A DNA stretch of 64,000 nucleotides from Octopus vulgaris (taxonomy: Eukaryota), in the NCBI GenBank assembly GCA_951406725.2, contig OX597829.1, forward strand, positions 16,802,001-16,866,000, in the 5' to 3' direction. The translations under genes and the position numbers were made by a program. Shown here piece by piece: positions 33,709 through 53,738 of this stretch; within the stretch, counting starts at the first letter, position 1; each line of letters starts with the position of its first letter. Below the pieces are notes generated by a model that saw nothing but the letters and a program-made list of their open reading frames with translations, was not told the origin of the DNA and did no database searches.

Positions 33709-34697
33709 GGAGAGAGAGAGAGAGATAGGTAGATAGATAGATATGCATGTTATGCTGTGGATCGTGCTAGTGACCAGGTCGCAGCTTGTGCGACAAAAAA
33801 ATCTGATGCAAAATAATAATTGCTTGATTGAAGTTAACAGTATTTGCGAATTTATGAATGGCTAATATTTGTATTGCTCGTTGAAACAGTTTTAATTAGT
33901 TAGAGCTGTAATAAAAGTTTATCTGAAATAAATAAAACTGAAAAGGCATGGCCTTTACCAAAGACTGTACCAAAATGGGGTGTTTAGATGGAGCCCGGTC
34001 CCACCCACAATTTATCAAATCTGGAATGTGCAGTGATTCGTTTTATCCCCCGCTTTTCTTTTCCTTCACAGATTTTCTCACAGAGTTGAACAGCCTCCTT
34101 GTCATCACCTCTACAAACGCCCACTCTTTTGGAGATAGTTCAACGGCATTTCTCTCTCCGGCATTTTCAACCCTGACGTCATTTTCATGCAACACAGATA
34201 AAGCTAAAGCCAAAGGTGAATTCATGAACAGAAGCCTCGCTAATGTCGTTCTTGACTTGGAACCTGTCTTGTCTCTTTACACAGAATAACAATCACATAC
34301 ACAAACTGCATATGTGTGTACATGATATATATGTATATATACACACACAAACGTACGCACATGCATATATCATATATGTATGGATAGATATGTATGCATG
34401 TATGTATAGATATATACTAATATACGAGTGTATGTAAGCGCATATGTAACTTTATATATATGTTTGTTTTATGTCAAGTCATATGTGTGTTTGTTTGTGT
34501 GTGTGTGTGTGTGTGTCAATATTTGGCAGAAGCAAGTGACTGACTCAGATACGAAAGTTTTGTGCGTTGATGATAATTGTCAACGCACTAAAACTTGGGG
34601 CCTTGAGTGAGTATGTTGCTTCTACTAAATATACATAAAAATATGCATATACATATATTTTGAGTTCCTGTTTGCACCAACATACCTATATATATAT

Positions 34698-35252
34698 ATA
34701 CAAAATCTAAAGGACTGACCACTAAAAGTGGACGTTCAACATGCTAGATACAGACGTTAAAATCGCTATTTTCCACGAAGAATGTGTTCTCAAATAAAAA
34801 CTCAGCACAAACCAAAGTGTAAAAAATAATCAAGACAAATGAAAATATACGAAATAATAACGATTACCTATGTACTGATCAGATATCTAGTCCTGGAAAT
34901 TATATTTGTATACGACAGACTATGCTGATGAGCTTGCAGATTTCCACGTATCCATATGCGTGGATATTAACAAGCGAAACTGATCGGTACATAGGTAATC
35001 GTTATTATTTCGTATATTTTCATTTGTCTTGCTTATTTTTTACACTTTGGTTTGTGCTGAATTTTTATTTGAGAACACATTCTTCGTGGAAAATAGCGAT
35101 TTTAATGTCTGTATCTTGCATGTTGACCGTCCACTTTTAGTGGTCAGTCCTTTAAATTTTGTATGTAAAACTATTTTAATCTTCGGATTTTTTAATATGC
35201 TAGGCCACTGGTTCTAATTGATTAATATCAATTTCTACTCTTATTCAATTTT

Positions 35253-35260
<8 letters not shown>
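34698..35260 (+). mobile_element. Non-coding fold-back element: 185-bp inverted arms (34698-34882 / 34980-35164) around an HHR, within (TA)n
   Basis: The arms read as reverse complements with few mismatches; TA runs on both sides. Confidence 0.85.
34920..34994 (+). ncRNA. Type I hammerhead ribozyme, intact core
   Basis: CTATG-CTGATGA-GCTTG..(tccacgtat/atgcgtgga hairpin)..CAAGC-GAAA-CTGATCG-GTA-CATAG. Stem I CTATG/CATAG, near-palindromic stem III, GUA site at 34987-34989. Confidence 0.9.
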
Positions 35261-35376: not shown

Positions 35377-35422
<46 letters not shown>

Positions 35423-35667
35423 TATACAATATGTTACATTACACCGTCACGGTGTCCTTATCCTGCAAAGGGAGGTAATTCCCGATGAAGCGGAAACCAC
35501 ACACGGACCATCGGCCTATCGTCGGCGTGTGGCCTCCTTCCTCGACGAATTCTCACTCTGCAGGATATTCATATATAGATTTTCAAGCAAAATACATTTG
35601 CTGATTTCGAAAATCGTTCGAAAGCAATAAATTCTCTAAAAGAGATATAGACAGTAACTGCTCGTCA

Positions 35668-35747
35668 AGATAAAACTAACACCCCACCACCCCTGAGTTT
35701 CAGATGCCAATATGTGGAAATCCACAACACCATCTCTTCGGTTATCT
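35668..35747 (-). ncRNA. PLE hammerhead (CCGAAGA core) with enlarged stem III loop
   Basis: Minus: AGATAA-CCGAAGA-GATG..CATC-t-GAAA-CT[caggggtggtggggtgtt]A-GTT-TTATCT. Confidence 0.7.
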
Positions 35748-35941
35748 GGCTATTTGAAAACGTTATGAAAAAATACCGTTAAAAATGAAGGGACATTACT
35801 CTGTAATAACTCTGCTTTGCCTGCGTACTTATACATCGCTCGCGTTTTTCGTCATAAAAATTATATAAAAATACATAAAAATATATAAAAATATATAAAA
35901 ATATATAAAATCTTCTTGGGACATAACACAGAAAGCATGTT

Positions 35942-37062
35942 CTATCCGTTTTCTTTAGGGGACCAAAAACGTAACAGAAATTTAGTCACATGTGGGCATG
36001 ATCCGAAAAGCTCTGTCCTTGTATTTAGACATGTGGTAGGGTCTAAGCTGCTTTTCCAGATAAGCCATCTCTCCATGTCGCATAAACCGCACCTTCCGCT
36101 GCCGTTAGTGTAGGGCTTACATCTGGCCAAAATCTTCCATTGTATGTTATAATCGACACCTTTATCTCTTAAAGACCAAATATGATTGGATAATTGTGTC
36201 GCTTTTCTTTTGTTCCAGTGCCTAAAGCTCAAAGTGTGGTTATTGAACCTGGCCTTGAAATTACCCTCTGTCAGGCCCACGTATTTCTTCATCGAAACGG
36301 TGTCTTTAGTGGTTATAGAGTTCACGGTAGCTTCATATATGATGGTCTTGGACATGCAAGCCCCATTTAGTGGGCACAATTCTTTATTCCTGCATGAACA
36401 GCTGTTTTCTTCTTGTGTTTTTTGTATGTTATGATTGATTATGTTTTTAAAATTGGTAGTTGAACTAAAACTAATTTTTAAATTGTGTCTATTGAAGAGT
36501 TTCCTATAAGCATGGTTAACTGGAAAATGTCTATCTATCAGTGCTAGGAAATATTTACCTATATTGAAGGCCACCTCGGGTGAGTAAGGGGGCGTAGACC
36601 AGATGACCTTCCTATTTCTATTATTCCTTTTCCTTACTGTTGGGCTGGTGATAGGTGTATATTTTATTTTTTCGCTAAAACCACTATCTTTTAAAGCTTT
36701 ATTATAAACTGGGGCAACGCTATTGAAGATGTCCTCATTAGATGAGAGGCTAGAAATCCTCTTACTAATATTTTTAACTAAATTTTTGAATACTATAGGG
36801 GGATGGCATGAACCTACATTAATATAACTTAGTCTATCATTGGGCTTCCTATAAGGCTTATAAATATTATTATTAAGATCTAAGGAAACGTCTAAGAAAT
36901 TGACAACCGTCAGGTTAGTGTCTATAGTTATACTAAGTCCGAAGTGTTTCATTAACTGGATAATATCCTTCCTAAAACGATCTTGTGCTGGTCCATTTGT
37001 ATTAGCTGTTAAGGCGAGGGCATCATCTTTTTAGATGGCGAAATGTACGTTAGGGAATGTCT
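35942..37062 (-). pseudogene. PLE reverse transcriptase (C-terminal part) + Cys-rich linker + GIY-YIG endonuclease
   Basis: FAI*KDDAL (disrupted YxDD, TAA at 37031-37033), VNFLDVSLDL, YKPYRKPN, SCHPP, CSCR..CPLNGAC, IIYEATV..KYVGLTE..FKARFNNH, LNTRTE. Confidence 0.92.
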
Positions 37063-37429
37063 TAAAGACACCGTTTCGACGAAGAAATACGTGGGCCTGA
37101 CAGAGGGTAATTTCAAGGCCAGGTTCAATAACCACACTTTGAGCTTTAGGCACTGGAACAAAAGAAAAGCGACACAATTATCCAATCATATTTGGTCTTT
37201 AAGAGATAAAGGTGTCGATTATAACATACAATGGAAGATTTTGGCCAGATGTAAGCCCTACACTAACGGCAGCGGAAGGTGCGGTTTATGCGACATGGAG
37301 AGATGGCTTATCTGGAAAAGCAGCTTAGACCCTACCACATGTCTAAATACAAGGACAGAGCTTTTCGGATCATGCCCACATGTGACTAAATTTCTGTTAC
37401 GTTTTTGGTCCCCTAAAGAAAACGGATAG
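37063..37429 (+). pseudogene. Inverted duplicate of the GIY-YIG C-terminal half
   Basis: Peptide KKYVGLTEGNFKARFNNH...WSPKENG is identical to the minus-strand ORF. Confidence 0.92.
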
Positions 37430-37613
37430 AACATGCTTTCTGTGTTATGTCCCAAGAAGATTTTATATATTTTTATATATCTTTATGTATTTTTATATAA
37501 TTTTTATGACGAAAAACGCGAGCGATGTATAAGTACGCAGGCAAAGCAGAGTTATAACAGAGTAATTTCCCTTCATTTTTAACGGTATTTTTTCATAACG
37601 TTTTCAAATAGCC

Positions 37614-37676
37614 AGATAACCGAAGAGATGGTGTTGTGGATTTCCACTTCGGCATCTGAAACTCAGAGTTTTATCT
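37614..37676 (+). ncRNA. PLE minimal hammerhead (CCGAAGA core)
   Basis: AGATAA-CCGAAGA-GATG..gtgg/ccac..CATC-t-GAAA-CTCAGA-GTT-TTATCT. 6-bp stem I, palindromic stem III, GUU site. Confidence 0.78.
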
Positions 37677-37772
37677 TGACTACCGAGTAATGTAACATAT
37701 TGTATAGATAAATTTCCTCTATTTACATAATATTGAGGTCTCTTTCTTTCTTTTGTTATCTTACCGTTTTAT

Positions 37773-37840
<68 letters not shown>

Positions 37841-40322: not shown

Positions 40323-40803
40323 GGTATTTAAATACCCAATTGAATCTGAATTTAGTTTATATTTTACCTGTAAAGGTGTAAACTTGCGAGCCACCTTATT
40401 ATTATCATTAATATGATTATTAATAACGGTAATAATTCTTCTCTGATGTAAATTTATACAGGCTCACATAAGTTCGTTTTAAATGACACGGGGACATTTA
40501 AAAATAAAGAACGCACATGACGTTATGGGATGAATATTTTAGAAATAGATTTTAACGTGATATTTTCAGCTGATGAGCTCAAAGTGTGATTTTTCGTACA
40601 GAGGGTGAAATCAATTGATCCTGAAATATATATACATACCTTAATTCTGTGTTCCACGCAATGTAAGACTATTTCTGTTATGTTTATTGCATTGGCCATA
40701 CATATCTTAATAGTGAATAATTGGTTGCTTTGGAGCGATGGCACTGTTTATAACAATTGATACACTATTATAACGAGTGATACACTATTGAATCTGAAAT
40801 TAG

Positions 40804-43018: not shown

Positions 43019-43408
43019 CTAATGTAGGATAAATTTTTTTTTTCGGGAAAAAAATTTTTTATCAATGGCCAGCATATCAAAAAATACCTTTAAAGGTTAA
43101 ATTTATAAATAATTTACAAAATGAGGGCAAACGAAAAATTCTAATGCCAAATATGCCGAAAAAAAGACAAAAATTATCGATAACCATTATAATTTATGCG
43201 TTTCGAAACAAACCGATAGAAATTTCTAAAAAATCCGTTATTACCGTATTGGTCCCAATTTCGGGGTTAATTCATAAGAATTTTCCCCTCTTCAGCGATA
43301 AATACGTGAGATATAAGTGAAATACTTACTCATACCCATGGAAAAAGCAAGAACTAAGTCCTGAGCAGACCTAAGTACCCCAAATATATCCAAAATAGAT
43401 ATTAAATT
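43017..43408 (-). mobile_element. Non-coding PLE pLTR-like monomer in (TA)n; same family as 7177-7825
   Basis: Shares taatgtaggataaa..tcaatggccagcata..ctaatgccaaatatgccgaaaa..atacttactcataccca..taagtaccccaaata. Confidence 0.8.
43241..43301 (-). ncRNA. Type I hammerhead ribozyme, intact core
   Basis: Minus: TTATCG-CTGAAGA-GGGG..aattc/gaatt..CCCC-GAAA-TTGGGACCA-ATA-CGGTAA. Stem III ATTGG-GA-CCAAT; AUA site. Confidence 0.88.
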
Positions 43409-52739: not shown

Positions 52740-52855
52740 GGTGGAGGTTAACAATACGCACACCACCTGTTTTCGGTGTTACCCTAACCGTAACCGTAAC
52801 CCTAAACCTTAATCCTAGCCCTAAACACCGGGTGTGCGTATTCTTTGCCTTCGCC
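52740..52855. mobile_element. 116-bp MITE with GG..CC TIRs, 8-bp TSD and internal telomere-like repeats
   Basis: ggtggaggttaacaatacgcacacc / ggtgtgcgtattctttgccttcgcc. TSD cacaaac(t/c) at 52732-52739 and 52856-52863; internal ccctaaccgtaaccgtaaccctaa. Confidence 0.75.
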
Positions 52856-52988
52856 CACAAACCGAGAATGATGTTTTAGTTTCAATCTCCAGCTGAAGGC
52901 ACTAGTTTATTTAATCCACTGATGTCATCCAGAAAAGAATGAACATTACAACCTCCTATTTGTCTTCCTCTACAAAATTAATTCGAAA

Positions 52989-53060
<72 letters not shown>

Positions 53061-53067
<7 letters not shown>

Positions 53068-53650
53068 CTTAGGGTAGAAAAAAAATTTTAGAAAAATTCT
53101 CCGCTACTAGTGGTCTAGCGAGAAGGAAAAAATAGTCAATAGACTATATATTATTCATAGAAAAATACAGTGTGCATTTAAACACATAGGAGATGACCAT
53201 AATAGGACATCTGACTCACTAGAAAGAGCAGTTAAACTCCAAACCACTAATAGTTGTAATTCTGAAAGGGAAAGAGAAATAAAAACGTTTACCCTATCTT
53301 TCCTGGACTATGCATAGTTTCGGCAATCTTTTGTAAATAAAATAAAATGATTTTAATTTACAATTGGCGTTGCCATCTTCAGCAGGAAGCCAAGGCTAAC
53401 ATATAGGCACGAGGCGATAAGGACCTTGCCTCGAATCTATATGCTATAACTTTTCAAAATCCACCACGCACGTGCGGTTTTTTCAGCAGTAAATATAATT
53501 GCCGATTTTCTTTCAAAATTAGCAAAAAAAAACTTTTATCGTTAGGGTAGCAACAGAATTACAACTATTAGTGGTTTGGAGTTTAACTGCTCTTTCTAGT
53601 GAATCAGATGTCCTATTATGGTCATCTCTTATGTGTTTAAATGCACACTG

Positions 53651-53655
<5 letters not shown>
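53061..53655 (-). mobile_element. Non-coding fold-back element: ~100-bp inverted arms (53163-53264 / 53554-53655) around an HHR, within (TA)n
   Basis: The arms are near-perfect reverse complements; long (TA)n on both sides. Confidence 0.85.
53300..53388 (-). ncRNA. Type I hammerhead ribozyme, intact, canonical GUC site
   Basis: Minus: TTCCTG-CTGAAGA-t-GGCAA..ttgtaaat/atttacaa..TTGCC-GAAA-CTATGCATA-GTC-CAGGAA. Perfect palindrome ACTATGCATAGT forms stem III. Confidence 0.92.

Positions 53656-53738
<83 letters not shown>

Follow-up and report, generated by a model that had tools for sequence, protein, structure and literature searches.

The element analysed here occupies positions 53060-53655 of a 64,000-nucleotide stretch of the Octopus vulgaris genome (contig OX597829.1, 16,802,001 to 16,866,000; hereafter the window), between (TA)n target microsatellites on its left (52992-53059) and right (53655-53736). 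Its main copy (53060-53553, minus strand) extends over one retrozyme monomer and, at 53542-53553, over 12 nt of the following unit; 14 nt have been deleted where the two units meet, and the 3′ end of this copy is at a fixed site that we call A (about 53060). Joined to it head-to-head is a second, 5′-truncated copy on the plus strand (53554-53655), whose 3′ end is at another site, B; the stretch of the main copy repeated in this arm is 53163-53264, and the "tail" of about 100 nt between the two end sites (53060-53162) is present on a single arm only. Inverted arms of about 100 bp around a ribozyme had been reported in the preliminary description, and they are indeed there, 102 bp long with two mismatches and with the ribozyme in the loop between them; they are not terminal, as the left arm begins about 100 nt inside the element. 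No open reading frame of 130 aa was found at the locus, and no empty-site joint appeared among the matches listed. Contigs from runs that we guessed to be RNA covered the repeat and not its unique flanks, with neither ends nor strand visible. Nearby, a short hairpin repeat of high copy number, with degenerate units resembling telomere repeats, lies at 52740-52860 of the window; it is unrelated to the retrozyme.

The ribozyme is a type I hammerhead on the minus strand (53300-53388), recognised by descriptor and fold, with a predicted cut after 53306. Stem I (6 bp) pairs TTCCTG (53388-53383) with CAGGAA (53305-53300) and is followed by the core CUGAAGA (53382-53376), an extra U between A9 and G10.1 (53375), a 5-bp stem II formed by GGCAA (53374-53370) and TTGCC (53326-53322) that an AU-rich outer helix of 8 bp prolongs (53363-53356 with 53338-53331), GAAA (53321-53318), a perfect 12-nt palindrome serving as stem III (53318-53307), and the GUC triplet, in which C17 is position 53306. 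The motif therefore has the CUGANGA, GAAA and UH core and the three helices of a hammerhead open at stem I, with a U added after A9. Every part listed earlier (the stems, CUGAAGA, GAAA, the 12-nt palindrome and GUC at 53306) was recovered; the label "textbook-quality" does not suit it, given the extra U at 53375, a strict descriptor that missed the motif, and the lack of a match to any Rfam hammerhead family. Upstream of stem I, a conserved (U)GGC (53392-53389) could pair with an equally conserved GCC(A) in the internal loop of stem II (53368-53365) as a candidate loop 1-loop 2 pseudoknot, with hardly any two-sided change. Two further candidates were rejected by eye: an AUG created by the extra U, whose reading frame is 7 codons long, and a set of GT-AG stretches (31-34 nt) that the second subfamily described below does not retain.

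A descriptor search picked out four strict hammerheads in the window, and the same search of 10 block-shuffled windows gave zero every time, so that hammerheads here are not a product of chance. Searching Rfam with the locus gave no hammerhead family and six unrelated matches (best E 0.56), a miss likely due to the 54-nt stem II region and the extra U; with the whole window, the matches listed (150 of 295) were microsatellite-driven miRNA matches alone. In fold predictions, the full hammerhead fold (−23.8 kcal/mol) ties with the lowest-energy fold and makes up about 6% of the ensemble, while the palindrome is predicted to form a duplex of −15.9 kcal/mol and no hairpin by itself, which makes it plausible that the hammerhead could act as a dimer through its palindrome. 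Other hammerheads in the window belong to other repeats: an unrelated, (TA)n-flanked element at 34695-35258 has a canonical core at 34925 on the plus strand and shares the build of our locus, with a 188-bp inverted arm beyond which the main copy extends by about 90 nt, and two more complete motifs (40564-40626, plus strand; 43241-43301, minus strand) lie in other TA-flanked repeats.

The window also holds a homologue from a second subfamily (493-832, minus strand), 73% identical to the locus and with its hammerhead at 636-722. Its main copy (493-777) ends at site B and its inverted arm (772-832) at site A, giving B on the left and A on the right, the reverse of the order in the first copy. The stem sequences quoted for it in the preliminary description are present; its core is mutated, however, with C3 changed to U at 718 (C3 is kept in 28 other copies of the subfamily), the basal position of stem II is a C-A mismatch, stem I has 4 bp, and stem III contains G-U pairs and forms an imperfect palindrome.

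The compensatory differences between these two copies had been taken to indicate selection on RNA structure, and a larger alignment of the family bears this out at one level and not at another. From 115 ribozyme 3′ halves, 19 without a 5′ core were left out; the remaining 96 ribozymes divide into 40 whose stem II is in canonical register, 30 carrying the extra U and 26 mismatched at the base of stem II, and 63 of the 96 are fully intact. Two duplicate loci, L043 (of L042) and L057 (of L053), were also set aside. For 56 of the 96, aligned after thinning two oversampled subfamilies, 91.8% of cells in the paired columns were pairs, compared with 81.7% in shuffles (0 of 500 as high) and 27-48% in slid controls (maximum 47.6%). 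Two-sided changes occurred in 13 of 21 pairs, a count that 70 of 500 shuffles matched, so relatedness matters; when a tree of the sequence flanking the ribozyme is read by eye, at least 7 two-sided swaps fall on at least 5 branches. At the level of the family, covariation thus supports the earlier claim. At this locus it fails: among the 30 closest copies, rare substitutions are as frequent in the core and stems (24/1193) as elsewhere (185/7423; p = 0.36), as expected of neutral decay. These results support selection on the fold acting through the replicating lineage of source RNAs rather than on inserted copies, which decay neutrally after insertion.

The host genome is 2.8 Gb in size and rich in microsatellites, and the family is present in many hundreds of dispersed copies, mostly in (TA)n. 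Exact-pattern counts, which are lower bounds, gave at least 691 matches to an 18-mer of the ribozyme 3′ half and at least 1002 to a downstream 19-mer, with 0 for the reversed controls. An 18-mer spanning the extra-U core had at least 47 exact matches, which places this core in one small subfamily beside sister subfamilies with a canonical core. DNA searches with the locus and with the homologue each gave 48 matches (the best 40 of 2289 and of 960 candidates scored, respectively). Eleven of 12 full monomers have a unit length of 467-498 nt, and the several subfamilies, 61-95% identical, each retain the unit of about 490 nt. Tandem arrays reach 2.5 units (L092, with ribozymes 478 nt apart), and at their junctions the end of one unit abuts the start of the next with no open reading frame between. 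The family consequently shows the short, non-coding, AT-rich, head-to-tail unit with a type I hammerhead in each that characterises retrozymes, and the locus is a copy of an animal non-LTR retrozyme, or non-autonomous Penelope-like element (PLE), with a non-coding monomer of about 490 nt. With one ribozyme, where Li et al. define active copies by two consecutive ones, the copy in the window is likely a dead end that could not excise a monomer and just decays. Several variants were seen along the way: five copies (L064, L071, L074, L079 and L082) form a subfamily with a CCGAUGA core (U4 to C), a longer stem II and intact stems; in L080 and L091 a long degenerate minisatellite comes after variant copies, the arrangement recurring every 1526 nt; and in L056 (G000:C12:250 kb) the site A end runs into a few TTAGGG repeats, a hexamer that occurs once in the unit itself, at site A.

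A profile of the unit identified 183 elements, 104 in 98 loci and 79 in 80 further loci. Sixty of these (30/104 and 30/79) are head-to-head with their 3′ ends outward, a minimum since short arms are missed; the fraction was 43/122 in loci chosen by genome order. Three elements are complex, one of which (L235) contains the sole tail-to-tail pair. The 3′ ends concentrate at site A (47/134) and in a B zone about 70-108 nt from it (75/134), together 122 of 134, and 107 of the 134 have (TA)4 within 45 nt, compared with a background of 440/5000 (8.8%). Of the 60 inverted elements, 54 have just one of their arms ending at A: 25/30 in the first set (p = 9e-5 versus independent ends; 27/30 after two hand corrections) and 29/30 in the second (p = 3e-8). 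In the second set, 19 of 29 partner ends fall within the strict B zone and 10 outside. The exceptions to the A-plus-B pairing are three to five pairs with both arms at B and one with both at A; by eye, L052 and L060 are A-plus-A. Where the target was not a pure repeat, inverted elements are flanked by direct target duplications, 15 bp long in L093 and 11 bp in L261. The family thereby combines partial tandems, an inverted 5′-truncated copy, a one-ended tail and a microsatellite target, the marks of a non-autonomous PLE.

The arms themselves range from tens to hundreds of bases, differ in content from copy to copy, and in some copies include the ribozyme. The link between ribozyme and arms that the earlier account had implied is not supported: arm length and content differ in every copy, and most copies are armless. 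The inverted arm is best read as a second cDNA and not as a structural part of the ribozyme. We give hardly any credence to the arms being functional, whether as a 100-bp hairpin displaying or controlling the ribozyme, as a source of small RNA, or as the terminal inverted repeats of a MITE: the 98% identity of the arms and the ribozyme left in their loop would suit such a role, yet this variability, the 123 of 183 elements not scored as simple inverted, and an arm that is internal and variable where a MITE has fixed terminal inverted repeats all argue otherwise, and the 2% divergence between the arms fits the age of the insertion. That the arm arose after insertion, by fold-back repair of DNA or a local inverted duplication, is also quite improbable. 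True fold-backs do occur, as in the inverted element L013, where the flanking host DNA is inverted too, distinct from the usual insertions; a fold-back origin leaves unexplained the strict polarity, the rule of A plus another end, the direct target duplications of L093 and L261, and the same pattern in coding PLEs.

Those coding families, which we take to be Penelope-like from weak GIY-YIG matches (E 0.04 and 0.003), motifs and architecture, had no Pfam match for the two full coding ORFs. Copies of a 717-aa RT/GIY-YIG-type family are 99% identical and, in 28 of 30 loci, end either 282-296 or 359-374 nt after the stop codon, in (TA)n, at sites about 70 nt apart; one end of each kind was found in all four inverted pairs for which both arms were covered. 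In the window, head-to-head 5′-truncated copies of this very young family (22812 search candidates) lie at 35422-37777 in the same build as the retrozyme, the left arm with an insertion of about 230 nt in its 3′ region. The hammerhead descriptor found no motif in three full-length loci of the 717-aa family. A second young PLE-like family (L164-L168) has a 1312-aa ORF and two 3′ ends about 55 nt apart, and by eye its pLTR carries a hammerhead-like variant core, CUGAUGCG.

A search for an autonomous parent with the monomer profile met retrozyme copies alone in 68 loci of two coding families, and the similarity between the retrozyme 3′ end and coding family 1 did not reach significance (between 22 and 284 of 300 shuffles scored as high). 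PLE fragments adjoining L018, L037 and L079 were rejected as parents, having (TA)n in between or the opposite orientation. Two chimeras were found among 120 flanks, one head-to-head and one tandem. In L096 (G000:C1:225360223-225360800), a retrozyme arm ending at B is head-to-head with a 268-nt arm of a non-coding element, with no TA between; the 3′ end of this partner is 80% identical to coding family 1 and stops at the far end of that family. In L098, a family 2 pLTR and a retrozyme copy of like orientation are directly fused. No further hybrids were found in 46 more 5′ flanks with a small hand-made library. Each chimera is a single case for which chance adjacency may account; the two are suggestive as to the mover.

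It is also unlikely that the repeat is the pLTR of an autonomous Penelope element, all of its copies being 5′-truncated or pLTR-only. The architecture is the same as that of PLE insertions, PLE hammerheads are located in pLTRs according to the available part of one study (PMC4209133), and our comparison covered two of several PLE families; against this, tandem junctions join unit end to unit start without an ORF, among 100 loci, including 40 that spanned 6 kb, none had a PLE ORF continuous with the unit, and the diverged subfamilies all keep the same unit. We consider it probable, with good confidence, that the locus is a dispersed, protein-free retrozyme copy of about 490 nt, presumably inserted by a PLE enzyme into a TA microsatellite, and that the arm is a second, shorter cDNA of the same event. 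Mobilisation by Penelope and two-ended priming are what we infer from these patterns. Tandem source copies would be transcribed, and predicted cleavage after GUC, by a single hammerhead with 4 bp in stem III or more readily by a dimer through the palindrome, may give unit-length or circular RNA. A Penelope RT-endonuclease would then cut both DNA strands at the target, each free DNA end would serve as primer for reverse transcription from either A or B, fixed sites about 75-105 nt apart, and the two cDNAs would be joined 5′ to 5′. For the copy in the window, the A-primed cDNA would be the full unit plus 12 nt, pointing to a circular template or one exceeding a monomer in length, and the B-primed cDNA would have stopped after 102 nt.

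As far as the available text of Cervera and de la Pena (2020, PMC7229834) and of Li, Clavereau and Pollet (2026) goes, the family resembles metazoan non-LTR retrozymes in that its tandem units are AT-rich and non-coding and have one type I hammerhead each, its monomers and short arrays are dispersed, and it co-occurs with PLEs; the subfamily with the basal mismatch in stem II resembles HHR_Amex2 of the axolotl. Its unit of about 490 nt is longer than the 170-400 nt in the accessible part of the 2020 paper (PMC7229834) and within the 51-972 in that of the 2026 preprint (bioRxiv 10.64898/2026.07.22.740005), and it differs from the retrozymes in these excerpts in its very long stem II, its 4-bp stem III inside a 12-nt palindrome and, in the window copy, its single ribozyme. 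In Xenopus, one of nine predicted retrozyme dimers was cleaved in vitro, according to the same portion of the preprint (bioRxiv 10.64898/2026.07.22.740005). The traits of PLE insertions given in the accessible sections of Craig et al. (2021, PMC8557442) and Frangieh et al. (2024, PMC11167929) recur here: 5′ truncation, partial tandems, (TA)n targets, two fixed 3′ ends, a one-ended tail and, at the 5′ end, an inverted copy that is itself 5′-truncated, the Penelope tail being accounted for in the latter by two internal RT start sites. Relative to the insertions in those sections, the octopus repeat has no ORF and a tail of about 75-105 nt instead of 30-40 bp, and the pairing of one end at A has been counted (54/60). 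PLE hammerheads typically have an extra nucleotide between 9 and 10.1 and a helix III that is palindromic, in the part of PMC4209133 available, and the octopus motif shares both traits; a nucleotide added after A9 also occurs in the A10/U10 variant of the CChMVd (+) hammerhead, where U raised trans-cleavage 3-4-fold (PMC3705267, in part); unlike the hammerheads in these excerpts, the octopus motif is not minimal, with full stems I-III, and its extra U marks one small subfamily. The literature on cephalopod hammerhead retrotransposons and on Penelope inverted or twin-primed insertion, covered incompletely and without supplements, yielded nothing on this retrozyme family or on the pairing rule.

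The locus itself is an ordinary ageing copy of a known kind of genomic parasite, an animal non-LTR retrozyme with the footprint of Penelope insertion. In the available portions of the literature, how animal retrozymes are mobilised and how inverted, one-tailed Penelope insertions originate are questions left open, and the family gives them a countable footprint, one end at A and the other not in 54 of 60 cases. Ribozymes can be compared side by side by means of its natural cores: the canonical one and those with an extra U, a mismatch in stem II or C4. A tentative generalisation is that Penelope enzymes prime both cut ends at two fixed RNA sites, and that the arms can derive from two different RNAs; if this is true, enzymes of the family 1 type would be movers of the retrozyme despite the lack of sequence homology. 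If the L096 hybrid is one event, two RNAs can serve a single insertion, which argues against a single circular template, and the hybrid opens the choice between one RNA and two to a test in the in vitro system already available for Penelope.
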